Assembly (NCBI GenBank): GCA_020638065.1
Contig: JACKJG010000013.1
Location: forward strand, 19,058-83,057
From: Hyphomicrobiaceae bacterium
GTDB taxonomy: Bacteria > Pseudomonadota > Alphaproteobacteria > Rhizobiales > Devosiaceae
Direction: 5' to 3'
Length of the DNA stretch: 64,000 nt
This document shows, piece after piece, positions 40,155 to 64,000 of this stretch. A program made the position numbers and the translations under genes. Under the pieces are notes generated by a model. It did not search any database, was not told the origin of the DNA, and saw only the letters and a list, made by a program, of their open reading frames with translations. The number at the start of each line of letters is the position of its first letter. Position 1 is the first letter of the stretch.

Positions 40155-40171
40155 GACAGGAACCGGGACGC

Positions 40172-42022: not shown

Positions 42023-42040
42023 AAGCGGAGACCCGGACAG

Positions 42041-43822: not shown

Positions 43823-43840
43823 GGCAGGAGTGAAACTCCG

Positions 43841-45760: not shown

Positions 45761-45958
45761 ACGGCAACGCGTTCAGTCTCAGCCTCGCCACAGCCTCTGA
45801 ACGAAGCCGGACCGTCCGCTGGACGGTGCCGCAATCGGCATTTTCCCCGTTTTATCTAGCCCGTCTCAGACCTTTGGCGCTCCAACTTGGGACCATCGGT
45901 CAATTGCCCGACAGACCTGATCCATTTGACAATTTGGCTCCGGCTTCAGGAGATCAAT

Positions 45959-47728
45959 ATGGCCACTTTTGTCGTTACAAACACCAATGACCAGGGCTCT
46001 GGCAGCTTGCGCGATGCCCTCGCGAAGGCCGAGCAGCACACAGGCACCGATACGATCGTCTTCAATTCCAACCTCGCTGGCCAGACGATATTCCTCGCTT
46101 CGACGTTGCAGATCAAAAGCGGAAACGTCATCATCAGTGGTGACACCAACGGCGACGGCGACGCCGATATCACGATTTCCGGCGACACGACGAACAATGG
46201 CCAGGGAGCCACGGATGTCGGCACGCTGCTTTCAATAGCAGGCCAGGCAACTGCCAGTATTGCCAGCTTCGTGTTCACGGACGGATATTCGCAAGGTTTG
46301 GCGTCGAACCAGGCCGGCGTTGCCGGCGAACGGGGAATGGCTGGCATCGTCAATAAGGGCCAGCTGTCCCTTTCAGACTCCATTGTCACCAACATGGTCG
46401 CCAAGGGCGGCACTGGCGGCGGCGATGCCGTCGATACCGATGATGGTGCCGACGCCTTTGCCGGGATCGACAATACGGGCACCCTGTCGATCTCCAACTC
46501 CTACATCGGCCAGAATAGCGCCTCCTCCGCAGACGCAAACAATGCGCTCAACAATGCCGGCGCCGGTGGGCTGGCGGTGGCGGGCATCCGAAACAAGGGC
46601 CAACTGGAAGCCGACGGCGTTCTGTTCACGGGAAACGTCGCTCTCGGAGGCGCTGGCGGACAAAGCATCAACCAGACCGGCGGCGACGGTGGCGCTGCCG
46701 GAGCAGGCATTTGGCAGGATGCGGGCTTTACGAGCGGCTATATCGGTCATGAAGCCGGCACGGCCACCGGCGGTGCTTACGGCCCGGGGAATCCCGGGCC
46801 GGGCGAGAATGGAAAGAGCTATGCGGGATTTCATGCCGAAGCTCCAAGCACGTCCAGTGTGGTCGTTTCGAATGAGGCCGTTTCAGATCATTTTGGCGGC
46901 ACGGGTATCGACCTGATCAACATCGCCGCAGGACAAAACGTTTTCGCCCTTCATGGCAACGACACCATCGACAACAGGGGACTTGATGTTGCCGGCATCA
47001 TTGTCCACGCCGGCAGCGGTAACGACAGGATCTATACCGGCACGCTCGACAGCTCGTTCGGTGACACCGGCAACGACAGGATTTTTGCTCAGGGCGACGC
47101 GACGGTGAACGCAGGCCTCGGGAATGATAAGGTCACGGTAACTGCGTTCACACCGGCCAGTTCGATGAAGGCGACCGGCAGCGCGGGCAATGACACCCTG
47201 GATTTCAGCGCAATCACGGGGCAGAATTTCAAACTTGATATGCAGACGGGACTGACCTCCGGCGCCGCAACATTTGCCAGGTTCGAGCGATTCATCGGAA
47301 TCGATGACGCGGGCTTCACCGACCGTATCAACGGAACCTCCGGCAAGAACAGCATAGATGGAATGGCCGGAGACGATATTCTGAGGGGGCAAGCCGGCAA
47401 CGACACGTTGCGAGGCGGCGCAGGCAGAGATTTTCTCGATGGGGGGACTCAAAATGACAAACTGCTTGGCGGTGCCGACAGCGACACGTTCAAATTCTCC
47501 AAGAAATACGGAATCGACGTGATCCTGGATTTTGCTGACGATGTCGACACCATCCTTCTCAACGACCGGCTCTGGAAAGGAACCATGACCAAGGCGCAGG
47601 TGCTTAGGCAATTCGCGACCCTTAACGACAATGGCAACGTCAAATTCGATTTCGGCAACGGCGACAAGCTCATCATCAAAGACGTTGGCAGCATCGACGT
47701 TTTAAAGAACGACCTCGTCATCATCTAG
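45959..47728 (+). CDS. P5: beta-helix / RTX calcium-binding protein paralog (most divergent of the + array)
   Basis: MATFVVTNTNDQGSGSLRDAL is preceded by AGGAG after a 198-nt gap. ISGDTNGDGDADITISGD, AGIxNxGxL units and a shorter RTX block are present. The tail is DTFKFSKKYGIDVILDF..KNDLVII. Confidence 0.87.
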   Translation: MATFVVTNTNDQGSGSLRDALAKAEQHTGTDTIVFNSNLAGQTIFLASTLQIKSGNVIISGDTNGDGDADITISGDTTNNGQGATDVGTLLSIAGQATASIASFVFTDGYSQGLASNQAGVAGERGMAGIVNKGQLSLSDSIVTNMVAKGGTGGGDAVDTDDGADAFAGIDNTGTLSISNSYIGQNSASSADANNALNNAGAGGLAVAGIRNKGQLEADGVLFTGNVALGGAGGQSINQTGGDGGAAGAGIWQDAGFTSGYIGHEAGTATGGAYGPGNPGPGENGKSYAGFHAEAPSTSSVVVSNEAVSDHFGGTGIDLINIAAGQNVFALHGNDTIDNRGLDVAGIIVHAGSGNDRIYTGTLDSSFGDTGNDRIFAQGDATVNAGLGNDKVTVTAFTPASSMKATGSAGNDTLDFSAITGQNFKLDMQTGLTSGAATFARFERFIGIDDAGFTDRINGTSGKNSIDGMAGDDILRGQAGNDTLRGGAGRDFLDGGTQNDKLLGGADSDTFKFSKKYGIDVILDFADDVDTILLNDRLWKGTMTKAQVLRQFATLNDNGNVKFDFGNGDKLIIKDVGSIDVLKNDLVII

Positions 47729-47733
47729 ACGGC

Positions 47734-47768
47734 AAAAAAACCCCGGCATGTTACCATGCCGGGGTTTT
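47734..47768. terminator. Bidirectional rho-independent terminator between P5 and katG
   Basis: AAAAAAA-CCCCGGCATG-TTAC-CATGCCGGGG-TTTT forms a perfect 10-bp stem flanked by an A-run and a T-run. It lies 6 nt after the P5 stop and 40 nt after the katG stop. Confidence 0.85.
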
Positions 47769-47807
47769 CATTTGCCGGTGGCCGGCATCGGGCTCGAAAC
47801 AGTGCGT

Positions 47808-50084
<2,277 letters not shown>

Positions 50085-50090
50085 CTAATC

Positions 50091-51005
50091 ATGAAACTGT
50101 CGCTCAAACAGCTCCACTATGCCATAGCGCTTGCCGACCACGGTCATTTCGGCCGGGCCGCTGAGGCAAGTCACGTCACCCAGTCCGCTCTTTCTCAGCA
50201 GATCGCCCTGCTCGAACAGGCTTGCCGCGTGCCGGTCTTCGATCGGGGCCAGCGGCCCGTCGTCCCTACCCCGTTTGGCCGCGAATTTCTGGCGCGGGCA
50301 CGTCAGCTATTGACCGAGGCCGATGCGCTCGAGACCTTTGCTCTCAGCGCCAGCGGACTGCCCGACCGTCCCCTGCGCTTCGGTCTTATTCCGACCATTG
50401 CGCCCTATCTGCTACCGACCATCTACCCGGCCCTTGCCACCGCGCGTCCGAACATCAGCCTCAGTGTTGTCGAGCGGCAAACCGACGATCTTCAAACCGA
50501 GTTGGTGGATGGAAGTCTCGACCTCGCGATGATCGCGACCGACCTTCCTGCCGACCTGCCTCTGACTGGTGAATCATTGTTTGCCGACCCGTTCGTGCTG
50601 GCCACGCCAAAGGACCTTCTTATCGCCGACCCTGCGCCGATCGCCGACCTGCCGCACGACCACCTCTTGCTGCTCGAAGAGGGTCACTGTTTTCGCGATC
50701 AGGCATTGGCGGCTTGCGGGCTTGACCGGAACGGCAGGCCCCACCCGTTTTCGGCGACCTCGCTGTCAACGATCGTAGAGTTCGTCGCTAATGGCCAGGG
50801 CATTACGCTGCTGCCGGCCATTTCGCTCCGCAAGGAAGCAAGCAACAGCCGTGTCTCCATTCACGCCCTCGCCGCACCGGGCGCGAGCCGCACGCTGTCG
50901 CTCGTCTGGCGTCGCGGTTCGCCGTTCGAAACCGTTTTCCGGGACATGGCAACACTGATCCGCGAAGCAACGAAGGATCAGTTGGCCGAGCCGATTTCTG
51001 CCTAG
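50091..51005 (+). CDS. oxyR: LysR-family hydrogen peroxide-inducible activator OxyR
   Basis: The N-terminal HTH is LKQLHYAIALADHGHFGRAAEASHVTQSALSQQI. The redox Cys pair context is LLLEEGHCFRDQALAAC (E. coli: LEDGHCLRDQAMGFC). It is divergent from katG. Confidence 0.85.
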   Translation: MKLSLKQLHYAIALADHGHFGRAAEASHVTQSALSQQIALLEQACRVPVFDRGQRPVVPTPFGREFLARARQLLTEADALETFALSASGLPDRPLRFGLIPTIAPYLLPTIYPALATARPNISLSVVERQTDDLQTELVDGSLDLAMIATDLPADLPLTGESLFADPFVLATPKDLLIADPAPIADLPHDHLLLLEEGHCFRDQALAACGLDRNGRPHPFSATSLSTIVEFVANGQGITLLPAISLRKEASNSRVSIHALAAPGASRTLSLVWRRGSPFETVFRDMATLIREATKDQLAEPISA

Positions 51006-51811
51006 CCCAAGCGCGCGACAACCAGATGGCCCGGCGTCGGCCGACCGTCCTGCATGCGCACATTGATATCGTCCATCGCGACAATCTCGAACCCGGCATC
51101 GGCCAGGCACGCCTGCACGTAGTCCGCCGCGTGCACAAAGCGCTGATGCGGCGCGACCCTGAATGGCCGCCCGCCCATGTCCCCCAGCGTCTCCGAGGAA
51201 AAGACCAACAATCCACCCGGAACGAGATTGTCCGCCGCGCCCTCAAATAGCGGATCGAGCTCTCCGAGATATGGCAACACGTCACAGGCCGTGATCAGGT
51301 CGAACTGTTCCTCGTCATTGTCGGCGAGAAATTCCTCGACCTCCCCGCAATAGAGGCCCTCATAGATATCCTTGTCTTCGCAGATATCGATCATGCGCGA
51401 GCTGATATCGATGCCGATCATGTCCGTCACGCGGTCGCGCAGGGCCTCGGCGGCAAGCCCGGTCCCACAGCCAAGATCCAGAACGCGCTCGAACGGCCCC
51501 AGACCAAGCGCATCAAGCTTCTTTCGCACGAGATTGGGCACGTCATAGCCCAACTGTTCGACCAGAATGTCTTCGAACGCGTCTGCATGCTGGTCGAACA
51601 GAACCTCGACATAGGAATCGGGCGCCTTGGCCGGCACCGCGCCGCGTTCGAGCGCTGCAAGGCGCACCGCTGCACCACCATGATCCTGCGGATCGAGCTC
51701 CAGATAGGCTTTGAGCGCGGCCACCGCGCCTTCGATGTCGCCCGACTCTTCCAGCTCGAGCGCAAGGTTGTACGCGTCGGCAACGGCCGGCTCATCGAGC
51801 TTGCGGCCCAT
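51002..51811 (-). CDS. Class I SAM-dependent methyltransferase with N-terminal TPR-like segment
   Basis: SAM motif I VLDLGCGTGLAAEAL is present, plus the post-I acidic residue IGIDIS and motif II-like FDLITACDVLPY. Confidence 0.75.
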   Translation of the reverse strand: MGRKLDEPAVADAYNLALELEESGDIEGAVAALKAYLELDPQDHGGAAVRLAALERGAVPAKAPDSYVEVLFDQHADAFEDILVEQLGYDVPNLVRKKLDALGLGPFERVLDLGCGTGLAAEALRDRVTDMIGIDISSRMIDICEDKDIYEGLYCGEVEEFLADNDEEQFDLITACDVLPYLGELDPLFEGAADNLVPGGLLVFSSETLGDMGGRPFRVAPHQRFVHAADYVQACLADAGFEIVAMDDINVRMQDGRPTPGHLVVARLG

Positions 51812-52407
51812 CAGGCACTCTCCTCTGCGCCGGGATAGATCCAGTGTTCCCAGATGCGGATCTTCACCGCCTCACCCATCGCAATGGTCCCTGCCCGTTC
51901 GACCCAGCCGACAAGGCCGCGCCGGTGCCGGGCGACCTTGGGAAACAGGAACCTGATGTCCTCGCGCCCCTCGAAATGGCTGGCGATCGATGCACCCGAA
52001 TAGGAACACGGACCATTGTCGCCGTCGATCCGGACCGAAACACCACCTTCGAACATCAGGATGGAGCGCGGCGGCAAGAGGCTGAGATGAGGCACACCGG
52101 AAAGGGTGATACTGGCGCCGATCCATTCCGGTTCTATCCGGTCGATTTGCATGTCACGCGCCACCCCGGCCAGTTCCGTCCGGCAGACAATCGACAATTG
52201 CCGTTCATTGCGCATCTCGGTTCCACGCTTGTACCAGGGCTCACGAGCGCCGCTTTCGCGCAGCAGACCGGCGTGCCGGTCTCCCGGAACGCCCTCATAT
52301 GTCAGCGTCAATTGGTCCACCGGCTCGCTCACGAACGTGTCACCCAACGCTTCAAACAATCCGTCGACTTCGGCCTCGATTGTCCGCGCTGGCGCAAACT
52401 CAACCAT
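51811..52407 (-). CDS. MOSC domain-containing protein
   Basis: GVPGDRHAG, RQLSIV and the conserved Cys context GDNGPC fit MOSC (YiiM-like) beta-barrel proteins. It overlaps both neighbours and is probably in an operon with rarD. Confidence 0.6.
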   Translation of the reverse strand: MVEFAPARTIEAEVDGLFEALGDTFVSEPVDQLTLTYEGVPGDRHAGLLRESGAREPWYKRGTEMRNERQLSIVCRTELAGVARDMQIDRIEPEWIGASITLSGVPHLSLLPPRSILMFEGGVSVRIDGDNGPCSYSGASIASHFEGREDIRFLFPKVARHRRGLVGWVERAGTIAMGEAVKIRIWEHWIYPGAEESA

Positions 52408-53353
52408 CGGTCACAATCTCCCGTTCCAGACGCCGTTTGCGCCGCTGCCGGAGACTATCATGTGTGTAGACGACAAGTGACATCCAGATCAAAGCGAAGC
52501 TGATCAGGCGAACCGCATTGATCTCTTCATGGAACAGAAAAACCGCGATCAGAAACTGCATCGAGGGCGCGAGATACTGAATCATGCCGATTGTCGTCAG
52601 CCGCAACTGCCGGGCGCCATAGGCAAAAAACATCAGAGCGCCCGCCGTAGCGGGCCCGGTGGCAATCAACCAGAACATGCTCCAGGGGTCGGTGTAAAAA
52701 CCGGTGCCAATTTCGGATGCGGAATAGACGGCGTAACCGATCGCAAACGGAAACAGAACAAGGGTTTCAACCGCGAGCCCCGGTGATGAGCGCACATTCA
52801 CGGTTTTTCGAATGAAACCATAAACTCCGAACGTGCCTGCCAAGGTCAGCGAAATCCAGGGCAAACCGCCAATCGCCTGCGCCTGCAGAGCCACCGCCGC
52901 GGCCGCGATTGCGATCGCGACCCATTGCTGCCGGTTCTGGCGTTCTCCCAGGAACACCATGCCCAGCAGCACATTGACCAGCGGATTGATGTAATACCCG
53001 AAGCTGGTAGCCAGAACCTGTCCGGTTTCGACCGACCAAACATAAACGAGCCAGTTCACGCTGAGAAACAGGGTGGCCGCGAAAATGGTCAACAGCGTTC
53101 TGGGGTCGCGCATCGCGGCCCAGACTTCGCCAAGCCGCTTCTGAAAATAGAGGATGGCGTAAACGAAGAACAGCGACCAGATGATCCGATGTGCAACGAT
53201 CAGGGTCGAAGGCACAGCTTCGAGCGCCCGGAACATGAGCGGAAACAGGCCCCACATGACGTAGGCGCCCAGCGCGGCGGATACCCCGCGCCCGATATCC
53301 TTTTGCTGCTCGTCGGACATCTCACCGGCCTTGTGAACCGGCGCGGCCGGCAT
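52400..53353 (-). CDS. rarD: EamA/DMT-family transporter RarD
   Basis: The product is collinear with E. coli RarD. Examples: GVSAALGAYVMWGLFPLMF (E. coli GVLLALAAYFIWGIAPAYF), HRIIWSLFF, GYYINPLVNVLLGMVFLGER and RLTTIGMIQYLAPSMQFL. Confidence 0.9.
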   Translation of the reverse strand: MPAAPVHKAGEMSDEQQKDIGRGVSAALGAYVMWGLFPLMFRALEAVPSTLIVAHRIIWSLFFVYAILYFQKRLGEVWAAMRDPRTLLTIFAATLFLSVNWLVYVWSVETGQVLATSFGYYINPLVNVLLGMVFLGERQNRQQWVAIAIAAAAVALQAQAIGGLPWISLTLAGTFGVYGFIRKTVNVRSSPGLAVETLVLFPFAIGYAVYSASEIGTGFYTDPWSMFWLIATGPATAGALMFFAYGARQLRLTTIGMIQYLAPSMQFLIAVFLFHEEINAVRLISFALIWMSLVVYTHDSLRQRRKRRLEREIVTDG

Positions 53354-53475
53354 CAGTCAACCGATAGCAACAATCGGCACGCTCAGCCAATCAGCTTTTG
53401 TGATGGTCCGATGCAGTCGCTGAATGGGACAGCAACAGAAGGCGATGTGTTCGCCCGCTTTCGTCCGGTGCACCC

Positions 53476-55371
53476 TTAAACGATCTGAATATCGTCCTTC
53501 AGCGCGCTGATGTTTCCGAAACCATCGAGACTCAATTCATCCTTGCCGAAATCCAGGACCACCTCGCCATTCACCTTTTTGGCGAACTGATTGAGAACCT
53601 GTTTTTTGGTCAGGTTGCCGTTCCACAGGTTGTGGTCCAGAACGATGGTATCGACATTGTTCTGAAAGTCTTCAACCACATCTTTGCCGTCCTTTTTGTT
53701 GAACCAGAACCTGTCGGCCCCAAGGCCACCAGTCAGACTGTCGTTCTGACGTCCCCCGCTCAGACTATCGTTTCCAGCACCGCCATCAAGCCGGTCCCGA
53801 CCGGTGCCGCCTGCCAGGATATCCTCGTTAGCACCTCCGAACAGCACGTCGTTTCCTTTGCCGCCCAAGAGGTTGTCGAGGCCCTTTCCTCCGTGCAGAT
53901 CATCATTGCCGTTTTGGCCGAACAGCTCATCATTGTTCGCGCCGCCGACGAGCAAGTCATTGCCGCCGCGGCCATGCATCATGTCATTTCCGGCAAGTCC
54001 CTGTATGACGTTTCGTGAATTCGTTCCGCTGATGTCGTCCTGCTCAGCGGCGCTGTCCGCTCCGATGAAGTTCTCGAAATCAACACCATAAAAGGCGGAG
54101 AAGTTCGACGGATTGGCCTGATTGAACGAACGTCCAAGCCCGGTTTCCATGTCAAGAAAGAACGAGAGATTGTTCTGGCTGACATCGAGCCCGTCCACGC
54201 CGGAGCCCCCATAGAGCTGAGCGGCGCCGTGGTTGGCGTGAACGATCATGTCGTCCCCTTCCGCTGCGATCACGGTCATGCCCGCGCCCTGAATATTGAT
54301 CACATCGTTGCCGCTTCCGGCATTGACATAACCACCACCGCCCTGATGCGTGAGCGTGTCATTGCCCCCCATGCTGTAGAAATTCGTGCCCACCGCGATC
54401 ATTTCACGGTCATCGCTCGCTGTTCCAAACAGGGATCCCGCAAGCTCGCTGGTCGCCAGATAGCTTGGGCCGCTGAGCTGCGAGGTCGCTGTCGACCCCG
54501 CGGGGGAATAGAACGGCCCACCCGCGATCAGTCCGCCGCTGCCACCCGTCAGCGTGCCTGTCTTGCTGGCAAACGTACCGCTTGAATAGGAACTGCCCCC
54601 GATGACGGGCCCGCCGACGGCATTGCCGCCGCCGCCACCATTAAAGGTATTGCTGTTGCCGCCATCGCCTCCCTTGACATAATTCGAGGCAAACAAGGCG
54701 CGGGTCATGCTGACGTTGCCGCCGGACGCCAAGACACCCGCATATGCGTTTCCGCCGTCACCGCCATAATAGCTGTCAGAGGATCCGCCCTGTCCTCCAA
54801 TGGCACCCAACCCGTTGAATGAGGTGTCGCGGATTGTCAGGTTTCCGCCCGTCGACAGGATTCCGGCAAACGCATTGCCGCCCTCCCCGGCATCGGTCCC
54901 TACGCCATTTGCGGCAGCACCGCCCCTGGCAATCATGTAGGTCAGAGCAGAGTTGGAAATCGTCAGATTGCCGCTGTTGAGTATGCCGGCAACTGCGGCA
55001 CCGCCCGCCTCGCCGTCGCTACTCCCTGCACTTCCTGCGCTGTAGGCGCCGTAAAAGACCATGGATTCAATGAAAACGTTGGCTCCGGATGAAACAGTCA
55101 GAAGGCCCGAAAGATCACCGCTACCCAGGCCGCCACCATCGGTATTGCCGGAGATGTAGATGTCCGGATCGCCATCCCCATCGACATCGCCATTGATGGT
55201 CACCTCTCCAGACCCAATACTCAGCGCGGAACTCAGAACAATCGGCTGGGTACCGAGCCAGGACACGAACGAAATCGTATCTGCACCGCTACTTGCCTCC
55301 GCGTCGGCAAGAGCCTGCCGCAAACTGCCAGTGCCGCTGTCGAAGTTATTGATGACCAGAAAATTCGCCAT
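53476..55371 (-). CDS. P6: beta-helix / RTX calcium-binding protein paralog
   Basis: Start MANFLVINNFDSGTGSLRQAL has GGAGAG upstream. INGDVDGDGDPDIYISGN and units such as AVAGILNSGNLTISNS..ARGG and GGDGGNAYAGVLASGGN are present. After the RTX block, the tail is DRFWFNKKDGKDVVEDF..KDDIQIV. Confidence 0.87.
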   Translation of the reverse strand: MANFLVINNFDSGTGSLRQALADAEASSGADTISFVSWLGTQPIVLSSALSIGSGEVTINGDVDGDGDPDIYISGNTDGGGLGSGDLSGLLTVSSGANVFIESMVFYGAYSAGSAGSSDGEAGGAAVAGILNSGNLTISNSALTYMIARGGAAANGVGTDAGEGGNAFAGILSTGGNLTIRDTSFNGLGAIGGQGGSSDSYYGGDGGNAYAGVLASGGNVSMTRALFASNYVKGGDGGNSNTFNGGGGGNAVGGPVIGGSSYSSGTFASKTGTLTGGSGGLIAGGPFYSPAGSTATSQLSGPSYLATSELAGSLFGTASDDREMIAVGTNFYSMGGNDTLTHQGGGGYVNAGSGNDVINIQGAGMTVIAAEGDDMIVHANHGAAQLYGGSGVDGLDVSQNNLSFFLDMETGLGRSFNQANPSNFSAFYGVDFENFIGADSAAEQDDISGTNSRNVIQGLAGNDMMHGRGGNDLLVGGANNDELFGQNGNDDLHGGKGLDNLLGGKGNDVLFGGANEDILAGGTGRDRLDGGAGNDSLSGGRQNDSLTGGLGADRFWFNKKDGKDVVEDFQNNVDTIVLDHNLWNGNLTKKQVLNQFAKKVNGEVVLDFGKDELSLDGFGNISALKDDIQIV

Positions 55372-55429
55372 CTGACTCTCCATGATCCTTGGGAGGGTAA
55401 CCAAAGCAATGCATGTCACAAAAATCGCC

Positions 55430-55441
55430 TAGCAATTGCTA
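55430..55441. promoter_or_regulatory. 12-bp perfect palindrome TAGCAATTGCTA in the divergent P6/LuxR-type intergenic region
   Basis: It is the only perfect palindrome in the 102-nt region between two divergent start codons. It is a candidate operator only. Confidence 0.3.
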
Positions 55442-55473
55442 TGGAGACTGGCTATCCGCTAAAGAATTGACCC

Positions 55474-56241
55474 ATGATAATACTTGAAAAACTATACAAC
55501 AGTGCGGAATGCCATCTGGGCAACTCCAAGCCTGACTGGCCCGCCTTTGCCGCCGACGTCAAACAGGCGCTCGGTTCGGAATTGCTATTCTACCATCTCG
55601 CGCCAGTTGCTCGAGTGTCCGGCGCGCAAATGCCGGCGCCAAGGTGGTCAGAGCGGGTGACCGTCATCGCAACCAGCAACCCCGAAGCGGTGAGTGACTA
55701 TCTCAGTCAGGACTATCAGCAGGAACCCCCGGTCGCCGAAGACGCGCTGGCACCTCTCGAGCCGGTGCTGAGGACGGACTTTCTTTCGGATGACGAGTTC
55801 CGCGCCCTCGGCCCCATAGCGGACCACCAGATCAGGCTTGGCGTCTTTCATAACGCAATGGTGCCCGCCAGACTGACCGATGGTTCAACCATTCACCTGC
55901 TCCTCTGGCGTTCCGAAGAAGAGGAAAATTACAGCGAGCGCGACCGGCAGCGGCTGGCCCTGTTCATGCGCTATCTTCTCGCCTTGGTTGACACGCAGTT
56001 TCTGGCGGCCGATGCACCGGACAAGGCCGTATTGTCGTTCGGACAAAGGCATGGCCTCACCGGCGCAGAAACCAGCATTCTGTCCGATCTGCTTCAGGGG
56101 CGCTCGCCACGGGACATCGCTCACCAATCCGAAAGAAGTTATGGCACCGTCCGCTGGCACATCCAGAACATTCTGGAAAAGTGTCAGGTCGGCTCACAAA
56201 AGGATTTGCTGCGCGAGTTCTATCGACTTATCCACCACTAG
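55474..56241 (+). CDS. LuxR/FixJ-type (GerE HTH) transcriptional regulator with uncharacterised N-terminal domain
   Basis: The C-terminal LTGAETSILSDLLQGRSPRDIAHQSERSYGTVRWHIQNILEKCQVGSQKDLL is a LuxR_C-like HTH. The N-terminal 190 aa show no receiver Asp pocket or obvious autoinducer-binding motifs. The 5' end is AT-richer than the surroundings. Confidence 0.78.
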   Translation: MIILEKLYNSAECHLGNSKPDWPAFAADVKQALGSELLFYHLAPVARVSGAQMPAPRWSERVTVIATSNPEAVSDYLSQDYQQEPPVAEDALAPLEPVLRTDFLSDDEFRALGPIADHQIRLGVFHNAMVPARLTDGSTIHLLLWRSEEEENYSERDRQRLALFMRYLLALVDTQFLAADAPDKAVLSFGQRHGLTGAETSILSDLLQGRSPRDIAHQSERSYGTVRWHIQNILEKCQVGSQKDLLREFYRLIHH

Positions 56242-56311
56242 GCGGACAGCTGAGCCTGTCACAAACACCGGCATCCCCGCGAGACCCTTTTACACATTTC
56301 CTTGAAACGCT

Positions 56312-58309
56312 TTAGATGATGATATCGGTCCCGCCGATATCCTTGAGGTCAGCGCCCATGATCTTGATCTTGGTGCCGTTCGACTCAAAGATGACTTTGT
56401 CGTCGTTCGTTCCGTTCCACTCGCTGAAGTGACTAAGGGCGGCCTTTTTGTTGGAAAAACCGAAGGCCCTGAGGTCGAAACGATCCAAGCCGTCCCGGTA
56501 ATCCTTCACGGTGTCGATGCCGTCCTTCTTGCCGAATATCAGGATGTCATTTCCAGCCCCGGAACTGATGGTGTCGTTGCCGGCACCTGCATCGATTTTG
56601 TCGTTGCCCGAACCCCCAACGACCTTGTCCTTTCCGCGCCCTCCGGAAAGTGTGTCGTTGTCAGCACCGCCAAAAATAGTGTCGTCATTATCGCCACCGC
56701 TTATGACATCCCGGCCGTCCTCGCCCTTGAGGACATCTTTTCCCTTGTTTCCGTTGATCGTATCGGCACCGGTCCCGCCAAACGCCGCATCGTCGCCCCT
56801 TCCGCCATTGATCGTATCGCCACCGCCGTCCCCGAACAGCCTGTCGTTGTCGTCGTCGCCATTCAGTTGATCGGCCTGCCCGCCGCCCCGAAGCACATCG
56901 TTGCCGGAACCCCCGAAAAGAATGTCGGCGCCAGCCCGCCCTTCGATCGTGTTCTTTGCGCTCGTACCAACTACCGTGTCCTGAAAATTTTTGTTGTCAA
57001 CGCCGATGAAGTTTTCGAAGTTCATCGCCGTGCCCCAGCCCGACGTCAATACTCCGCTCGTCATATCGAACGACGCGCTTCCCGTGTCACCGGAAACATC
57101 GAGCGTGTCGATGCCCGACCCGCCATCCATCGTGGCATAGAAGGTATAGGTATTGACGATAGTATCATTTCCGGAACCGCCATAGGCCTTGGCCCCACTG
57201 CCGCTTGTGGTGATCGTGTCATCGCCCGATCCGCCATAGCAAATGCCCTGGCCCGCCGAATTGTCGATCACATCATCGCCCTGCAGACCGAAATAGGTGC
57301 CCCCATTTGCCACCGTGGCGTTGTCGGCCCCATAGGTGCCAAATCGATGGGCGGAGGAATCATGCTGAAAATCCAGTCCCGAATGATCACCAGAGCGAAA
57401 AATCGTGGATGTGTTCTGGCCAGATTGACCGGGTGTTCCAAAAGTCGGATCTGCATGTCCCTCGCCTCCGGCAGCACCCCCTCCGCCATTTGAGCCCAGA
57501 ATTCCGCTCGCGGTACCACCATTCAGCAACAATGCGCTAACCGCATCCCCGCCATCACCGCCCCAATTGTAGGCGTTGCCGCCGTTGCCACCGTTGGAAG
57601 ACGAACCCTGCGACATGGTTCGGTTGAGCACCAGCAAAGAAGACGCGCCGCCCGAATAAATCCCCGCAACGCCATCGCCACCATCGCCACCAAAGTTATA
57701 GCCATATGCCGCGGCGGCGCCGTCTGCACGATTGTTCAGCAAGAGCGAATCCGTCATCGTCAGGCTGCCACGATTGAAGACTGAGCCGAAGGCGCTCGCC
57801 CCATCCTGCGAATGACCATCAAAGTTAAAAAGGGGGCCTCCGCTGGCGCCGGCCCTCGCAAGATTGTCCCGAATGATCGAGTCCGTGATGGTCAGCGTCC
57901 CGTCATTGCGGATGCCGGCAATCGCGTCCTCGCCAGCTTGACCGGCGTTCGTCGCGTCCGCGCCTTTGGCATAGCCATCGGCGAACACAAGCGATCGCAC
58001 ATTCGCCGTCGCACCCACATTGACTTTCAGTAAGATGCCAACATCCGCCTGATCGGCACCGTCATTGCCCGTATCGCCAGAAATTGTGATGTCCGGATCA
58101 CCGTCACCATCAAGATCGCCGTCGATGGTCACGGTGCCTTGAGTGATCGTCAGTGTCGAGCCGAGATAGATGCTTTTGTCACTCACGCCAGCCAGGCTTT
58201 TGTCGAACACGATCGTGTCGACGTTTGCACTTGCGTTGGCCTGCTCGATAGCGGCCCGCAGACTGCCCGTACCGGAATCATTGAAATTGGTGACAACAAG
58301 TCTGGCCAT
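56312..58309 (-). CDS. P7: beta-helix / RTX calcium-binding protein paralog
   Basis: MARLVVTNFNDSGTGSLRAAI, IDGDLDGDGDPDITISGD, AIAGIRNDGTLTITDS and GGDGGDGVAGIYSGG are present. A long RTX block follows. The tail ILIFGKKDGIDTVKDY..GGTDIII is the most divergent of the family. Confidence 0.87.
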   Translation of the reverse strand: MARLVVTNFNDSGTGSLRAAIEQANASANVDTIVFDKSLAGVSDKSIYLGSTLTITQGTVTIDGDLDGDGDPDITISGDTGNDGADQADVGILLKVNVGATANVRSLVFADGYAKGADATNAGQAGEDAIAGIRNDGTLTITDSIIRDNLARAGASGGPLFNFDGHSQDGASAFGSVFNRGSLTMTDSLLLNNRADGAAAAYGYNFGGDGGDGVAGIYSGGASSLLVLNRTMSQGSSSNGGNGGNAYNWGGDGGDAVSALLLNGGTASGILGSNGGGGAAGGEGHADPTFGTPGQSGQNTSTIFRSGDHSGLDFQHDSSAHRFGTYGADNATVANGGTYFGLQGDDVIDNSAGQGICYGGSGDDTITTSGSGAKAYGGSGNDTIVNTYTFYATMDGGSGIDTLDVSGDTGSASFDMTSGVLTSGWGTAMNFENFIGVDNKNFQDTVVGTSAKNTIEGRAGADILFGGSGNDVLRGGGQADQLNGDDDNDRLFGDGGGDTINGGRGDDAAFGGTGADTINGNKGKDVLKGEDGRDVISGGDNDDTIFGGADNDTLSGGRGKDKVVGGSGNDKIDAGAGNDTISSGAGNDILIFGKKDGIDTVKDYRDGLDRFDLRAFGFSNKKAALSHFSEWNGTNDDKVIFESNGTKIKIMGADLKDIGGTDIII

Positions 58310-58341
58310 TGGTCGCGTCCTGGTCGAGAAATTCGTGGGTC

Positions 58342-58370
58342 ATTACAGGGGTGCACCAGGCCGAGGTCAA
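58342..58370 (-). promoter_or_regulatory. Putative sigma-70 promoter for P7
   Basis: On the minus strand the sequence is TTGACC, a 17-nt spacer, then TGTAAT, about 32 nt upstream of the P7 ATG. It lies in the 104-nt gap after the sulfotransferase stop. Confidence 0.4.
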
Positions 58371-58413
58371 GTCACAAACGGGCATGCGCGCGTGGGAATT
58401 TGACAAATATCCG

Positions 58414-59262
58414 CTACTTCCCGGCCGATTTCATCGTGATCCGGTTGGCCTTGGTCGGGTGATTTTCGTTCCAGAACTGCAGCCCCTCGAACTGCTTGAA
58501 CAGATCGGGTGGCAACACGGTGTTGCGCGGTTTCCACTCGACCTTCTTGCGCACCGTATGCAGGTCCTTGGCCATCATGAAATTATCGAAATCCTCGGCC
58601 TGATATTCGACATCGTCAAAATCATGCTTGAACTCATCGAGCCCGGTGAACTGGTAGATCAGTTCCATCGTATCGGCCGGATATTTGACGAGGAGGTCGT
58701 ATTCAACCAGCAGCAGTTTGTCCGCATGCTCGCCAAAATAGGCTTCCTTGAGCGCCGACCAGGCAAACCCGATCATCCGGTCGCGGCGCTGCAATGCGTC
58801 CGCCCGGCTGAACACGGTTGAACTTTCCGCGTCCGAAAACATCCGCGAATGATCAAGCGCGTTCTTGCGGATCAGGACCTCGACCGAATCGAGGATCCAG
58901 GCCGGGTTGCGGACACAGCAGATGACCTTTGAACCGGGAAAGAGCTCCTGCAGGATGGCCATCCGAGTGGTCCACAGCCGGTTCGTGTCGAAGATGATCT
59001 CGCGCGGTTCGTCCATCTCACCATAATAGGAATCGAAAACCGATCTGAGGATCGCCCGCTTCTGCCGCTCGGTCAGAAAGATGGCGAATTCGTTCCCCGC
59101 GCCCATTGACGAGAAAATCGACCGGAAAATGTGCCCGATCGGGCTCGACATGCCCGCATGAATTTTCGGATTCTGCCGCAGGATAGCGGACAGAAGGGTC
59201 GACCCGCTGCGCGGCAACCCCGAAATGAAATGAAATGTATGGTCCACGGAATCCCCAAACAT
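58414..59262 (-). CDS. PAPS-dependent sulfotransferase family protein
   Basis: The 5'-PSB loop is ISGLPRSGSTLLSAIL (PRSGST). A 3'-PB-like segment is VICCVRNPAWILDS. Length is 282 aa and the protein is cytoplasmic (no signal peptide or TM segment). The ATG at 59262 follows the in-frame TTG at 59265 used by the track. Confidence 0.8.
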   Translation of the reverse strand: MFGDSVDHTFHFISGLPRSGSTLLSAILRQNPKIHAGMSSPIGHIFRSIFSSMGAGNEFAIFLTERQKRAILRSVFDSYYGEMDEPREIIFDTNRLWTTRMAILQELFPGSKVICCVRNPAWILDSVEVLIRKNALDHSRMFSDAESSTVFSRADALQRRDRMIGFAWSALKEAYFGEHADKLLLVEYDLLVKYPADTMELIYQFTGLDEFKHDFDDVEYQAEDFDNFMMAKDLHTVRKKVEWKPRNTVLPPDLFKQFEGLQFWNENHPTKANRITMKSAGK

Positions 59263-59376
59263 CAATCTGGTGTTCCGTGGACCCTACGTGAAGGTCCCTC
59301 GCCTGTCAGCACCCAAACACCCCGACGGCTGCGTGATTGCCGGTCGCCGGTAAAAACTTGCAGGCCGGCGGGCGGG

Positions 59377-61269
59377 TCAAACGAAATCCATGTCGTTCTT
59401 GATCTCGTCGACCGTGCTGGCACCCTTGACCGTCAGCTTGTCGCCGTTGCCGAAGTCAAACACCACGTTGCCGTTCGAATTCAACACGGCAAACTCCTTG
59501 AGAAAACTGGCCTTCGACTGTCCGGCGCTCGATTTCAGATTGCTGGAAAACTGGATCGTGTCGATATCGTCCTCGAAATCCAGGAAGGTGTCGCGATCAT
59601 AACCCTTTTTGTAGACGATCGTGTCGGCTCCGGCCTCTCCCTTGACCCTGTCATTATCCCGCCCACCATCCAGCAAATCGCCGTCATCCCCACCGAAAAG
59701 CCGGTCAATGCCGTTATTGCCGCGCAGAATGTCTACTCCGGTTCCGCCGGTCACGGTGTCGTTTCCTCTGCCGCCATTGATCTGATCATCCTGGTCTCCG
59801 CCAAGAATGATGTCCGCTCCCCGGCCTCCGACCAATATGTCGTTGCCATTGCGGCCGGAAATGAAGTCAGCACCGTTGGTGCCAATAATCTGATCCGAAA
59901 AACCGGCATCATTGATCCCGTAAACCTTTTCAAATCCGGCGAATGTGGATCCGTTGGTCGCGTTTCCGGTCCGCATGTCGAGGCTGAGATTGAGACCTGT
60001 GGTTTCGAAAATCAAAGTGTCGTTGCCAAGGCCACCATTGGCACCCATTCCGCTGAACGAGGAAACGTGGAATATGTCGTTCCCTCGGTTGCCGTGGGCG
60101 TAAAGCGCATTTGAGAGCACGAAGGAATCGTCCCCCGCCCCGCCATAGTTCAGGGTCCCAAGACCGGTGGAGGTAATGTTGTCGTGACCAGCGCCGCCGC
60201 GGATCGTCACGCTATAACCCGAACTGTTGTCAATCGTGTCATCGCCATCCAACCCAAAAATGACATCCCAGGGATCGGAGCTGACAACAATATTGTTGCT
60301 TCCAGAGGTTCCAAACGCGTTATAGACGGACTCGTTCCAGGCCTGTGTGGCTGGATCGATGGTTCCGCCAAGCTGATAGATGGAGGCACTGTCAGAACCG
60401 GCCGCGCCAGCCGTTCCTAAATTTGTTCCGCCTCCTGCCCCGGCCACTCTGATCCCGCCGGAATATCCGATGATCGCATCGACGTTACCGCTCGTCTGGA
60501 AGATGCCCGCCGCCGCATGCCCCCCCTGGCCCGCGGTGAATGCATATGAATATCCGCCGGTACCGCCGAACGCATAATTGTTGACGAACAAGACCCCAAT
60601 GGCCTCCAGATTACCCGCGTTCAGGATGCCGGACACGCCCCGGCCGCCATCACCGGCGGCAAATTCAGATGCCCCGGCGGCCCTGCCGAATGCGTGGTTT
60701 GCCTCGAAATAGCTGTCGCTGATTATCAGGGTTCCGGAATTGTAGATGCCGGCCGTCGCCGATGCGGCGTCTTCGGATCCCGACGGACTGATCGTGTAGC
60801 CCCCGGAAAGGCCACCATATGCGTAACTGCCGCTGAAGTGGCTGTTCTCGATCGTCAGCGAACCCTTATTGAAGATGCCGGCGACAGCATCTTCGCCGGC
60901 TTCTCCCGGGTTGATGCCATTGGCACCCTTGGCAAAAGCATTCACGAACTGGAGTGAACTCAGTGTGACGTCGGCCGCCGAATTTACCTGAACCAGAACG
61001 CCGAGGTCCGTGACCTCCCCTGTGCCGCTGTCGTCAGAGTCCCCGGACAGGAATATGTCGGCCTCACCGTCACCATCGATGTCGCCATCAATCGTGACGT
61101 TTCCCCGTTTGATCGTCAGCGTGTTTTGCAGGAAGATAGACTGACCGGTCAACGAGGCGTCAAACTGGATCGTATCCGCGCCGTCCCCGTTTTTGTTCGC
61201 AAGATTGATTGCTCGCCGCAGGCTTCCAGCACCGGAATCTGCTGTGCTTGTAACAAGAAAAGTTGCCAT
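59377..61269 (-). CDS. P8: beta-helix / RTX calcium-binding protein paralog
   Basis: MATFLVTSTADSGAGSLRRAI has GGAGGA upstream. IDGDIDGDGEADIFLSGD and four AGI[FYL]NxGxL..GG units are present, followed by an RTX block. The tail is DTIVYKKGYDRDTFLDF..KNDMDFV. Confidence 0.87.
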   Translation of the reverse strand: MATFLVTSTADSGAGSLRRAINLANKNGDGADTIQFDASLTGQSIFLQNTLTIKRGNVTIDGDIDGDGEADIFLSGDSDDSGTGEVTDLGVLVQVNSAADVTLSSLQFVNAFAKGANGINPGEAGEDAVAGIFNKGSLTIENSHFSGSYAYGGLSGGYTISPSGSEDAASATAGIYNSGTLIISDSYFEANHAFGRAAGASEFAAGDGGRGVSGILNAGNLEAIGVLFVNNYAFGGTGGYSYAFTAGQGGHAAAGIFQTSGNVDAIIGYSGGIRVAGAGGGTNLGTAGAAGSDSASIYQLGGTIDPATQAWNESVYNAFGTSGSNNIVVSSDPWDVIFGLDGDDTIDNSSGYSVTIRGGAGHDNITSTGLGTLNYGGAGDDSFVLSNALYAHGNRGNDIFHVSSFSGMGANGGLGNDTLIFETTGLNLSLDMRTGNATNGSTFAGFEKVYGINDAGFSDQIIGTNGADFISGRNGNDILVGGRGADIILGGDQDDQINGGRGNDTVTGGTGVDILRGNNGIDRLFGGDDGDLLDGGRDNDRVKGEAGADTIVYKKGYDRDTFLDFEDDIDTIQFSSNLKSSAGQSKASFLKEFAVLNSNGNVVFDFGNGDKLTVKGASTVDEIKNDMDFV

Positions 61270-61444
61270 GGTGATGCGTCCTCCAGCTCATGGCCAATTT
61301 TGAGAAAAGCACCATTTCCGCAGACGTGACGCAATGCAAGCGGCTTTTTTTGCATGGTCCGCATTGAGAACACTGCCCTCGCCAAAGTCGCCCTATTGTC
61401 TAAATTTCTGAAGCGGGCGGCAAACTCTCACATCGAGAGGAAAG

Positions 61445-62848
61445 TCAGACAAACGCAATGTCGTTCTTGAGCGCGGAGAGATTGCCAACGCCATCCACGA
61501 CGAGCCTGTCGCCGTCGCCGAATTTGAAAACGGCATCACCGTTCTGGACGGAAGCAAAAGCGGCGATGAACTCGGATTTCTTCATCGATCCGGCATTCAG
61601 GCGCTTTGCGAAATAGATCGTGTCCCGATCGTTTTCGAAGTCTTTGATGACGTCGACATCGTATCCCCGGTCGAAGAAGAATTGGTCTGCGCCACGCCCT
61701 CCATAAAGCTGGTCGTGTCCCGTGCCTGCACCGAGCGCATCTGCACCGCGTCCCCCGGCAATTCGGTCATTGCCTCCCGCCCCGAAAATCTCGTCGTTGC
61801 CGCCCAAACCATCGATAAAGTCCCTTTTTCCGCTGCCCAGAAGCTGGTCATCATAGGTGTCCTCTCCGAACAGGAAGACGCGGTCTGTTTTCTCGTTTTT
61901 CAGAAAGGCATTCTGTTTCAGGTTCGAACTGACCACGCCGTCGCGGAAATCAAATATCGCAACATCATCGACCTGAATGATCTTGTCGAATTGCGACTTG
62001 TAAATCCGCGTGAGCGCGTCACCCATGCCATAATTGCTGTGCGCCCAATTATGGTTCTTGATGTTGAACGACGTTTTGGCGTCATTGTTGCCGTAGTCGA
62101 AATACCAGCGCCAGGTCCCGTTATCGCTGTGACTGCGAATCTCGAATTCGAACATTTTGCGGAGTGCGCTTCCGCTTGGAAGCGCCTCGACATCCGAATT
62201 CTTTACAAAGAACAGATCCGCAAACGTATCGTAAGTGCCAAGCGCTGGGTCAGTATCGTCGTAATTCTTCTTGTAGGTATTGTACGATTGAAACAGCCAA
62301 TCGTTCGCAGCGCCAATATTCAATACGGAACCGTCTTTGACAACATATTCCGACCCAAATGAAACAAAAGTGGCGTTTGCCTTCTTGATATCGAAGTGAT
62401 CGGAAAACGATCTGGACAATTCGTTGGTAGCCACGCCACCGAGGCTGAAACCGGTCACCAGGAGCTTCGAAGATGGCGTCATGATGCCGTCCAGAGCACG
62501 ATAGACCTCGCCGAAATCGTCGGCATAATCTGTGTTGAACTGCGGCGGAGCCGGCAGGATTTCGGGAAACACCTTTTTCAAATCGGAATAGGTGATGGGC
62601 GTGAATGCGATGGCATACTTGCCAGGGTGCTTGGTGTCCTTGAACACGCTAAGGCCGATATCGCTGTTGTAGCTCGACGCGAAGAACTTTCGCCCAGACT
62701 TGCCACTCAAGCCAAGTTCACCCGCCGTCATGGGCTCCCAGGAGCCTGTCTTTTGGGGAACAATTCCGGTGCTGATGTACTTGAATGCCTTGATCAAACC
62801 AATGGCCGCCGTAACGAAGGAGCGGCTGGCCATTTCATCGAAATTCAT
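61445..62848 (-). CDS. Lipase (class 3 / alpha-beta hydrolase)-like domain fused to RTX repeats and the family C-terminal tail
   Basis: The nucleophile elbow LLVTGFSLGGVATNEL (GxSxG) lies in an approximately 330-aa N-terminal domain. RTX repeats GGNDEIFGAGGNDRIAGGRGADALGAGTGHDQLYGGRGAD follow. The tail is DQFFFDRGYDVDVIKDF..KNDIAFV. There is no signal peptide. The N-terminal domain is AT-richer than the RTX part. Confidence 0.8.
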   Translation of the reverse strand: MNFDEMASRSFVTAAIGLIKAFKYISTGIVPQKTGSWEPMTAGELGLSGKSGRKFFASSYNSDIGLSVFKDTKHPGKYAIAFTPITYSDLKKVFPEILPAPPQFNTDYADDFGEVYRALDGIMTPSSKLLVTGFSLGGVATNELSRSFSDHFDIKKANATFVSFGSEYVVKDGSVLNIGAANDWLFQSYNTYKKNYDDTDPALGTYDTFADLFFVKNSDVEALPSGSALRKMFEFEIRSHSDNGTWRWYFDYGNNDAKTSFNIKNHNWAHSNYGMGDALTRIYKSQFDKIIQVDDVAIFDFRDGVVSSNLKQNAFLKNEKTDRVFLFGEDTYDDQLLGSGKRDFIDGLGGNDEIFGAGGNDRIAGGRGADALGAGTGHDQLYGGRGADQFFFDRGYDVDVIKDFENDRDTIYFAKRLNAGSMKKSEFIAAFASVQNGDAVFKFGDGDRLVVDGVGNLSALKNDIAFV

Positions 62849-63078
62849 AATGGATTATGCCCTGATTAGCCGGAAAAAACCTGCAATTCAGATTTGTAGG
62901 GACCCGTCTGCGGCGAAGTCAAGCAGCCAGCCTTCCTCAGAGCGCGTCCAGAGAAATGCAAAAATCTTTTGGTGCCGAATGCGGCAAGCAATCAGGCAAC
63001 GGACAGCCGGGCGCGCCGGAAATGGATTTGCTTCGAACCAAGGCTCGTTTCGTGCGCAACAACAGAAAACGGCGAATA

Positions 63079-64000
63079 TCAAACGATGCTGATATCATCG
63101 TAGAGCTGAGAGACCGAACTCAGGCCCTTGATGGTGATGGATTCATTGGGCGAAAACGTCAACACCACGTTTCCATCAGCATCAAGGCTGGAAAAGTGGT
63201 AGAGCACGTCTGCGACGCTCAGGGTTCCCGACCACAATTTGTGATTGAGCACCAAAGTGTCTGTGTTGTCGGTGAAATCGAGAACGGTGTCGTGTCCGCC
63301 GCCCTTCTTGAAGACAAACAGGTCGCTGCCCGTGCCGCCGGTCAGAGTGTCGTTGCCTGCCTCGCCGTTCAGCGTGTCATTGCCGGCGCCGCCATTGATC
63401 TTGTCTTTGCCGGACCCGCCAAAAGCCTCGTCCTTTCCGGAATCACAGTTCAACGTGTCGTTGTTGTTTCCGCCGTAAAGCTTGTCGTTGCCGCCACCGC
63501 CTGAAAGCTTATCATTTCCGGCGTCGCCCTTGAGTACATCCTTCCCGCCGTCACCGCCGAGCACGTCTTTGCCGGCGCCACCCTGAAGCTTGTCGTTTCC
63601 TGCGCCGCCCCGGATTTTGTCGTTTCCGTTGTCACCTTTCACGATGTCGCGGTCCCCGTCACCAAAGAGCTTGTCGTTGCCGGCCCCTCCGGAGAACTTG
63701 TCATTGCCGTTGCCGCCCTTGACGTTGTCGTCTCCGCTTCCGCCATTGGCCGAGTCCCGGCCCCCACCCAGAACCAGTTTGTCGTTTCCGCCATCTCCCT
63801 TCACGACGTCGCTGCCTGCGCCACTCGAAAGCGTGTCCTTGCCATTGCCACCATTCAGGCGATCGTTCCCGCTGTCGCCCCAGACCTGGTCATTGCCGGA
63901 ACCGCCTTTGAGAACGTCGTTGCCGCCGTCCCCGTGAACCTGGTCGTTGCCGCCGCCGCCATCCACATTGTCCGATGCACTTCCACCGAACAACTTGTCT
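63079..64000 (-). CDS. RTX calcium-binding repeat protein, C-terminal part (5' end beyond window)
   Basis: The frame stays open to the window edge (..DKLFGGSASDNVDGGGGNDQV..). There are more than 20 consecutive GGxGxDxUx nonapeptides, then the family tail DLFVFKKGGGHDTVLDF..YDDISIV. Confidence 0.85.
   Translation of the reverse strand, partial: DKLFGGSASDNVDGGGGNDQVHGDGGNDVLKGGSGNDQVWGDSGNDRLNGGNGKDTLSSGAGSDVVKGDGGNDKLVLGGGRDSANGGSGDDNVKGGNGNDKFSGGAGNDKLFGDGDRDIVKGDNGNDKIRGGAGNDKLQGGAGKDVLGGDGGKDVLKGDAGNDKLSGGGGNDKLYGGNNNDTLNCDSGKDEAFGGSGKDKINGGAGNDTLNGEAGNDTLTGGTGSDLFVFKKGGGHDTVLDFTDNTDTLVLNHKLWSGTLSVADVLYHFSSLDADGNVVLTFSPNESITIKGLSSVSQLYDDISIV

Follow-up and report, generated by a model that had tools for sequence, protein, structure and literature searches.

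To our knowledge, tyrosine sulfation of bacterial proteins is known from one system only, that of RaxST and RaxX in Xanthomonas. In this system RaxX is first sulfated by RaxST in the cytoplasm and then exported through a type I secretion system (T1SS) (PMC6637879, PMC9372746). Homologs of raxST with about 40% identity are found in Proteobacteria and Cyanobacteria; their substrates are unknown, and Liu et al. 2019 (PMC6637879) acknowledged the substrates of these scattered homologs as an open question. Stewart and Ronald 2022 mentioned, as an unpublished observation, that bacterial tyrosylprotein sulfotransferase (TPST) genes often neighbor genes for exported proteins (PMC9372746). The present analysis concerns 64 kb of DNA from a Hyphomicrobiaceae bacterium (assembly GCA_020638065.1, contig JACKJG010000013.1, positions 19,058 to 83,057), here called the window, in which a raxST homolog lies among the genes of a large family of RTX proteins. 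The RTX genes appear to form an island of T1SS substrates whose products would be sulfated on tyrosine in the cytoplasm by the RaxST-family enzyme, before export through a T1SS encoded elsewhere. The probability of this reading is put at roughly 0.4 to 0.5.

The sulfotransferase of the window belongs to the RaxST (tyrosylprotein sulfotransferase) family and is a close relative of RaxST. The first-pass annotation of this DNA had named a sulfotransferase at this place, and a match to PF13469 at 2.8e-17 agrees with it. The protein is homologous over its full length to RaxST of Xanthomonas oryzae, with 42% identity over 263 amino acids (BLASTP, E 3e-72; reference sequence taken from Liu et al. 2019, PMC6637879, Fig. 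S6). Its best sequence matches in the PDB are the human enzymes TPST1 and TPST2. An AlphaFold (AF2) model of the protein (predicted local distance difference test, pLDDT, 79; predicted template modeling score, pTM, 0.81) has TPST2, TPST1, and a tick TPST as all of its top 13 Foldseek matches, with E values of 1e-10 to 3e-8 and template modeling (TM) scores of only about 0.5, while the best match outside the TPSTs has an E value of 1e-6. The catalytic Arg-11 and Ser-118 of RaxST correspond to R12 (in GLPRSGSTLL) and S120 (in CCVRNPAWILDS). The two motifs that bind 3'-phosphoadenosine 5'-phosphosulfate (PAPS), GLPRSGSTLL with the Arg of the 5'-phosphosulfate-binding (5'-PSB) site and CCVRNPAWxxDS with the Ser of the 3'-phosphate-binding (3'-PB) site, are invariant in 17 homologs. 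The enzyme has 282 amino acids if it starts at the ATG at 59262 and 277 with the GTG at 59247 (start chosen by homology).

Nine of the surrounding genes encode diverged paralogs of one exoprotein type, P1 to P9, and the island that they form covers 38.3-64 kb of the window and 1.5 kb beyond it. P6-P8 had been thought to share the architecture of P1-P5. This was confirmed by end-to-end alignment of the two sets at 40-60% identity and by a hidden Markov model (HMM) of the N-terminal domain (N-domain), which matches P6-P8 and P1-P5 at E values of 1e-105 to 1e-122. P1-P8 have in common an N-cap (D-S-G-x-G-S-L-R-x-A-I), three to four glycine-rich coils (GGxAxAGIxNxGxLTIxDS), a DxDGDGxxD loop, an RTX block, and a tail. 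The earlier count of at least eight family members within 26 kb now becomes nine in about 27 kb with the addition of P9. This gene had been labeled a partial RTX-only protein, which is an artifact of the window edge. Contig L001, from Hyphomicrobiaceae metagenome-assembled genome (MAG) GCA_020442265.1, is 100% identical to window 51621-64000 and runs 7 kb further. On it the P9 gene is complete and encodes a protein of 792 amino acids that begins VATFLVINNKDSGAGSLRQAL and carries the family N-domain (HMM E 1e-82).

The N-domain is predicted to be a beta-helix. In the AF2 model of P1 (pLDDT 75) residues 1-265 form a right-handed beta-helix, which a disordered linker connects to an RTX beta-roll at 300-525; a small domain makes up the C-terminus. 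The only Foldseek matches of this model are the RTX domain of CyaA and beta-helix proteins of a generic kind. Neither Pfam nor NCBIfam has a family that matches the N-domain at E<=5, and no relation to a catalytic family was detected with Pfam, NCBIfam, or Foldseek. A profile of the domain reaches 17,855 representative proteins at E<=1e-3; the matches often lie at residue 1 of a larger protein.

The C-termini of P1-P9 and of a tenth RTX protein are typical of T1SS substrates, and all ten are predicted to be secreted by this route. PF00353 repeats (GGxGxDxUx nonapeptides) are present in all ten (E 1e-11 to 5e-50). Each protein ends in an acidic residue and three to four hydrophobic residues (for example NDMVIV, DDIQIV, NDMDFV, and NDIAFV), as do T1SS substrates of the Prt/Apr/Lip type. 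The N-termini (MATFLVINT...) lack the hydrophobic h-region of a signal peptide on inspection, and no N-terminal signal peptide is apparent.

The tenth protein combines an RTX block and C-terminal tail homologous to those of P1-P9, ending in NDIAFV, with an orphan N-domain. It had been described as a lipase-RTX fusion, a label that lacks support. The N-domain (amino acids 1-330) has no Pfam match even at E<=5, and the PDB lipase 2z8x matches amino acids 331-457 only, which is the RTX part. The sole feature behind the hydrolase or lipase label is a GFSLGG motif resembling a nucleophile elbow. Membership among the T1SS-secreted (family I.3) or class-3 lipases is not supported, as no homology to the catalytic domain of known lipases or alpha/beta-hydrolases was found in Pfam (E<=5) or the PDB. 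An index of 5.8 billion proteins holds two relatives of this N-domain, both with about 50% identity. The domain is unusually rich in tyrosines in acidic context (TDYADD, GEVY, EDTYDD, RGYDVD), of which P1-P9 have few. From its sequence, the tenth protein could be a preferred substrate for sulfation.

Across phyla, the RaxST family is strongly tied by synteny to large exported proteins, and the tie is recovered from both sides. At least 378 RaxST homologs were found when one genome per species (GTDB representatives) was scanned, and the best 80 loci were analyzed along with those collected earlier. A large partner was defined as an open reading frame (ORF) of at least 600 amino acids, or one cut by the end of the locus, on the same strand and no more than 700 nt downstream of the homolog. 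Among homolog genes that have a downstream neighbor, such an ORF follows 55 of 71 (77%) and 67 of the 710 other ORFs of those loci (9%), giving an odds ratio of 33 (Fisher p 1e-35), and the homologs come from four bacterial groups. The large partners found in alphaproteobacteria and cyanobacteria are RTX proteins. A second group of partners, giant adhesins with DUF4347, Big_12, or cadherin repeats, occurs in gammaproteobacteria, with examples in Pseudomonas, Gilvimarinus, Photobacterium, and many others. Three homologs with 62-77% identity, on unrelated contigs, all adjoin large RTX genes with different N-domains. The homolog at locus L005 (77% identity), among the three closest whose neighborhood was read, lies inside an RTX cluster, one member of which carries the beta-helix N-domain of P1-P9 (E 4e-41). 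In the reciprocal direction, a metagenome scan with the N-domain profile gave 39 loci, 21 of them with at least 2.2 kb of upstream sequence, and a RaxST-family gene stands directly upstream of the beta-helix protein on the same strand in 3 of the 21. Finally, the sulfotransferase-adhesin pair of Pseudomonas congelans (locus L046) is flanked by a TolC-like outer-membrane efflux protein as well as by HlyD-like adaptors.

Several other features were seen at these loci. At L046 three HlyD-like adaptor genes lie on one side of the pair and the TolC-like gene on the other (L046:3947-8141 and 18226-19737), and one of the adaptors carries a fused intramembrane protease (M50/HExxH). Upstream there are genes for a histidine kinase and a cyclic di-GMP phosphodiesterase, and no ATP-binding cassette (ABC) transporter was seen in the part of L046 that was read. 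In a second Pseudomonas locus an ORF resembling adenosine 5'-phosphosulfate kinase, identified by reading the sequence only, lies downstream (L059:19177-19974). Two RaxST-family genes flank a single gene for a cadherin/beta-helix/RTX protein of 2830 amino acids at L008 (L008:19777-20661), and L013 and L016 each have two RaxST-family copies near RTX genes of 620-720 amino acids. In gammaproteobacteria, betaproteobacteria, and many cyanobacteria, what follows the RaxST homolog is nearly always a giant DUF4347 protein (L009-L088; for example L046:9950-18149, L028:9977-18347, and L039:9908-14997). An ad hoc HMM built from the three examples confirmed by Pfam places DUF4347 at the N-terminus of 46 of the 55 large neighbors. 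The domain may be a docking or target domain for RaxST-like enzymes.

In the proposed mechanism, the sulfotransferase would use PAPS to O-sulfate one or more tyrosines on one or more of the neighboring exoproteins in the cytoplasm. The RTX proteins would be unfolded at this stage by the low Ca2+ of the cytoplasm. They would then be exported through a T1SS encoded elsewhere, using their C-terminal signals, and would fold upon binding extracellular Ca2+. Sulfotyrosine would serve as a negatively charged interaction determinant displayed on an adhesin-like or matrix beta-helix. More broadly, RaxST-family enzymes may be general partners of type I-secreted proteins in alpha-, beta-, and gammaproteobacteria and cyanobacteria, sulfating tyrosines on a neighboring RTX, beta-helix, or giant DUF4347 exoprotein. 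This wider proposal is tentative, with the odds somewhat against it.

A number of observations weigh against sulfation of the island proteins on tyrosine. The catalytic Glu of the TPSTs cannot be aligned in the sulfotransferase. The activity of RaxST that depends on RaxX requires His-50 and Arg-129 (PMC6637879). The corresponding residues of the window enzyme are Asn and Asp, and both are conserved in its clade. Recognition of the substrate must therefore differ from that of RaxST, which fits a different substrate. P1-P9 have no invariant tyrosine and share no [DE]Y or other acidic-tyrosine context that would mark a conserved acceptor. The gaps on either side of the sulfotransferase gene are 104-130 nt and thus not operon-tight. 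Most syntenic partners elsewhere carry DUF4347, while the ad hoc HMM finds this domain in none of P1-P9 or the tenth protein. At locus L091, a homolog with 76% identity lies near genes for sugar nucleotides and polysaccharides, with UDP-glucose dehydrogenase, epimerases, and another sulfotransferase beside it. Finally, no T1SS genes linked to the island were found in 71 kb. The first-pass annotation had reported that an ABC transporter, a membrane fusion protein, and a TolC-like protein are lacking from the window, and these families are indeed absent among its ORFs of at least 250 amino acids. It had also suggested that the secretion genes could lie beyond the right edge. The next 7 kb on L001 encode two hydrolases, a drug/metabolite transporter (DMT), and a BglII-type restriction-modification pair, and no secretion machinery, which speaks against a T1SS just past the edge. 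RTX genes need not be linked to their T1SS genes.

The absence of a conserved tyrosine, the loose spacing, the polysaccharide genes at L091, and the lack of secretion genes within reach make a glycan or other acceptor a real rival. In this case the acceptor would be, for example, an exopolysaccharide, a sugar of the lipopolysaccharide or capsule, a lipid, or a small molecule, and the link to beta-helix and RTX proteins would be indirect. The beta-helix proteins could bind, cleave, or epimerize the sulfated polymer, as AlgE-type enzymes act on alginate. Many carbohydrate sulfotransferases are included in PF13469 and PF00685, and the window enzyme has a weak match to the Nod-factor sulfotransferase NoeE (3.9e-07, far below the cut-off). 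The Foldseek matches of the P1 model include polysaccharide-active beta-helices, namely the AlgE4 A-module, the alginate epimerase/lyase 8ja4, and VexL. However, this likeness is generic, with TM scores of 0.1-0.2, and is not accompanied by any detected catalytic family. The enzyme itself is related over its full length to a demonstrated tyrosine-sulfating enzyme, and the TPSTs are at least four orders of magnitude ahead of carbohydrate sulfotransferases both in Foldseek E value and in sequence search. In addition, the partners across phyla have export in common and no common glycan-active domain. Overall a non-protein acceptor appears unlikely, and tyrosine sulfation of the exoproteins is preferred.

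Less likely still is that the substrate is unlinked, for example a RaxX-like RiPP (a peptide made by the ribosome and modified after translation) or another protein, and that the island is a hotspot for accessory genes with no shared function. The homologs of raxST are laterally transferred and occur in "diverse genetic contexts" (PMC6637879), the number of paralogs in array 1 differs between relatives, a restriction-modification system lies just past the island, and the intergenic gaps permit independent transcription. A hotspot does not account well for same-strand adjacency to large exoprotein genes so far above background, found again when the search starts from the N-domain. No plausible RaxX-like small ORF flanks the sulfotransferase, and homologs of RaxA and RaxB are absent from the window. 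The idea that the paralogs are decaying or silent duplicates without a functional module is very improbable: no linked secretion system was found in 71 kb, but all nine frames are intact (589-792 amino acids) and preceded by Shine-Dalgarno-like sequences, independent assemblies from at least four samples contain DNA identical to the window, a related MAG shows synteny of the array, and gene conversion holds the secretion tails of three paralogs at 90-97% identity.

The regulator gene within the island is conserved as a partner of the exoprotein family. It was annotated as a divergent LuxR-type gene, and the GerE helix-turn-helix (HTH) domain is present above the Pfam cut-off (PF00196 at 8e-07, 29 bits against 23.5). 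At the N-terminus GAF_2 matches at 0.006-0.01, below the cut-off, and the autoinducer-binding domain PF03472 (Autoind_bind) reaches an E value of 0.13 and 12 bits against a cut-off of 23, so that the autoinducer-binding domain of LuxR-family quorum-sensing regulators is not recognizable. The description that suits the protein best is that of a GerE-HTH regulator whose sensor domain is uncharacterized. Locus L133, an unrelated metagenome contig from another organism, has a full-length ortholog with 48% identity, next to which a family member (P0001, with 46% identity to P7) lies in divergent orientation. The pairing of regulator and exoprotein is therefore conserved. No ortholog was found in the loci collected earlier, and one appeared only with L133.

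Judging from this conserved synteny, the regulator probably controls at least P6 and itself. The palindrome TAGCAATTGCTA between the two genes occurs as a single exact copy in the window and is not above chance by itself when compared with shuffled sequences. It is absent upstream of the other paralogs and is not conserved in the orthologous intergenic region of L133, so control of P7-P9 by the regulator is unsupported. A shared regulatory motif resembling GTTTTTCCGGC upstream of the sulfotransferase gene, the tenth gene, and P9 was rejected because it does not exceed the shuffled expectation. Scans of 53-64 kb for sigma-70 promoters and intrinsic terminators gave counts equal to those of shuffles. 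The regulator had earlier been called dedicated-looking and the block a functional module. The first description gains from the ortholog that is again paired with a family member, and the second from RaxST family membership, cross-phylum synteny, and the conserved pairing. An extension of the regulator's control to P7 and P8 is not supported, no shared upstream motif being above chance.

Positions of the features are collected in the table. The order and strands of the genes in 53476-64000 are as the first-pass annotation gave them.

Table. Genes and sites of the RTX island, in window coordinates
Feature	Position	Strand	Remarks
Array 1, P1-P5	38349..47728	+	five co-directional RTX genes
P1	38349-40154	+	array 1
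P2	40172-42022	+	array 1
P3	42041-43822	+	array 1
P4	43841-45760	+	array 1
P5	45959-47728	+	array 1
P6	53476..55371	-	631 amino acids from ATG 55371, also 631 in the MAG annotation; open frame extends to GTG 55419; assigned from P1-P8 alignment, N-domain HMM E 1.5e-108, PF00353 at 2e-19
Palindrome TAGCAATTGCTA	55430..55441	.	perfect, 12 bp; divergent luxR/P6 intergenic region; candidate operator
GerE HTH (LuxR-type) regulator	55474..56241	+	255 amino acids; divergent from P6
P7	56312..58309	-	665 amino acids; N-domain HMM E 2e-114; PF00353 at 1.3e-39
RaxST-family PAPS-dependent sulfotransferase, putative tyrosylprotein sulfotransferase	58414..59262	-	RaxST homology; PF13469
P8	59377..61269	-	630 amino acids; N-domain HMM E 9e-121
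Tenth protein, RTX with orphan N-domain (amino acids 1-330)	61445..62848	-	PF00353 at 1.5e-11
P9, 3' part	63079..64000	-	start about 1457 nt past the window end; whole protein 792 amino acids

The window is part of a chromosome, and the dcw cell-division cluster (ligA, recN, bamD, lpxC, ftsZAQ, ddl, mur genes, ftsW, mraY, PBP3, and mraW) occupies its first 31 kb. The cluster is followed by metF, an ArsR-methyltransferase gene, uxaC, and a DUF2336 gene. P1-P4 are separated by gaps of 17-18 nt each and are therefore likely to form one operon. A spacer of 5.7 kb between P5 and P6 contains katG, a LysR gene, a methyltransferase gene, a MOSC gene, and an EamA transporter gene. The first two, for catalase-peroxidase and an OxyR-like regulator of the LysR type, are a divergent pair (window 47808-51005) that parts the two RTX arrays, and the arrangement is kept in the related MAG L090. 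About 5.6-7 kb past the right end of the window, a BglII-like restriction endonuclease gene and an MT-A70 methyltransferase gene are convergent (L001:102-1486). Beside them are a Host_attach/baeRF-like gene and two alpha/beta-hydrolase genes.

The first array appears to evolve by recent gene conversion and by changes in copy number. Over the last 500-600 nt at their 3' ends, P1, P2, and P4 (window 39584-40154, 41452-42022, and 45190-45760) have 90-97% DNA identity, while the N-domains of these proteins are 48-60% identical. Tails that are nearly identical behind diverged N-domains point to recent conversion of the RTX-tail and secretion module within array 1. A related Hyphomicrobiaceae MAG, L090 (GCA_020638095.1, a contig of 938 kb), has the same flanks as window 37022-55371, from the DUF2336 gene through katG, LysR, methyltransferase, MOSC, and EamA genes to a P6-like gene. 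It has three copies in array 1 where the window has five, showing that the copy number is evolving. Assembly GCA_020442265.1 splits window 38349-64000 at the paralog repeats, into JAGRKP010000070 and JAGRKP010000219 (14 kb and 19 kb). Several apparent homologs of P7 from a "Hyphomicrobiaceae MAG" proved to be genes of the window itself, present in a fragmented assembly, and RTX repeats overwhelmed a search for full-length P7 homologs.

Taken without the sulfotransferase link, the array is a conventional cluster of RTX paralogs, though a large one. The embedded RaxST homolog and a link to T1SS substrates that can be generalized are what set it apart. The locus and the census name concrete candidate substrates for these enzymes, namely RTX/beta-helix exoproteins and giant DUF4347 adhesins. 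If these proteins are indeed sulfated, T1SS substrates would have two kinds of cytoplasmic modification before export, sulfation and acylation of the HlyC type. Sulfation would then have a bearing on adhesion, on the chemistry of the biofilm matrix, and on the engineering of sulfated secreted proteins. If RaxST-family enzymes are general partners of type I-secreted proteins, sulfotyrosine would be a widespread and so far unrecognized modification of bacterial adhesins and matrix proteins, and the island would be a natural test bed because it offers nine candidate substrates for a single enzyme.

Like raxX-raxSTAB of Xanthomonas, the island has a full-length RaxST homolog (42% identity) that keeps the 5'-PSB Arg and the 3'-PB Ser, and this cytoplasmic enzyme is encoded beside genes for proteins predicted to be exported by a type I system. 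In contrast to raxX-raxSTAB, the island has no RaxX-like precursor of 60 amino acids and no linked RaxA/RaxB exporter of the peptidase-containing ABC transporter (PCAT) type. RaxX is a peptide with a double-glycine leader, whereas the neighbors in the island are RTX proteins of 590-790 amino acids with predicted C-terminal signals. The activity of RaxST and its acceptor have been demonstrated, whereas those of the window enzyme are putative. The acylation of RTX toxins by HlyC and CyaC offers a parallel in concept: there, too, the gene of a cytoplasmic enzyme stands beside an RTX gene, and the enzyme is dedicated to modifying the unfolded product ahead of type I secretion, as is proposed here. 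The modification differs, being acylation of lysine rather than the proposed O-sulfation of tyrosine, and the enzyme folds are unrelated.

The exoproteins also resemble other described families. The mannuronan C-5 epimerases AlgE1-7 of Azotobacter vinelandii are likewise clustered secreted paralogs with right-handed beta-helix and RTX modules, and their T1SS is encoded elsewhere, as is predicted for the island proteins. However, sequence homology to the A-module is undetectable, and Foldseek matches to 2pyg and 2pyh have probabilities of 0.2-0.28 and TM scores of 0.10-0.16. The island has no alginate genes, and its N-domains are glycine-rich with short coils and no known catalytic motif. The rhizobial RTX proteins secreted by PrsDE (Rap adhesins, PlyA/B, and ExsH/EglC) and the SMc04171 Ca-binding repeat family are similar in being alphaproteobacterial RTX exoproteins with multiple paralogs and an unlinked T1SS. 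The island proteins also have partial NCBIfam matches to NF046115 and NF052454. These matches score 72-126 bits against a cut-off of 625 and cover mainly the RTX part, with partial reach into the glycine-rich region in P6 and never the whole N-domain. Finally, the D-S-G-x-G-S-L-R-x-A-I cap followed by repeated GGxA-x-G-I-x-N coils is shared with the parallel beta-helix N-caps, of the CSLREA and Pmp-like types, that large surface proteins carry. TIGR04214 matches with an E value of only 0.29, and no curated Pfam or NCBIfam model covers the N-domain of P1-P9. The CSLREA and Pmp-like proteins carry autotransporter or sorting domains, whereas in P1-P9 the N-domain is fused to RTX repeats.

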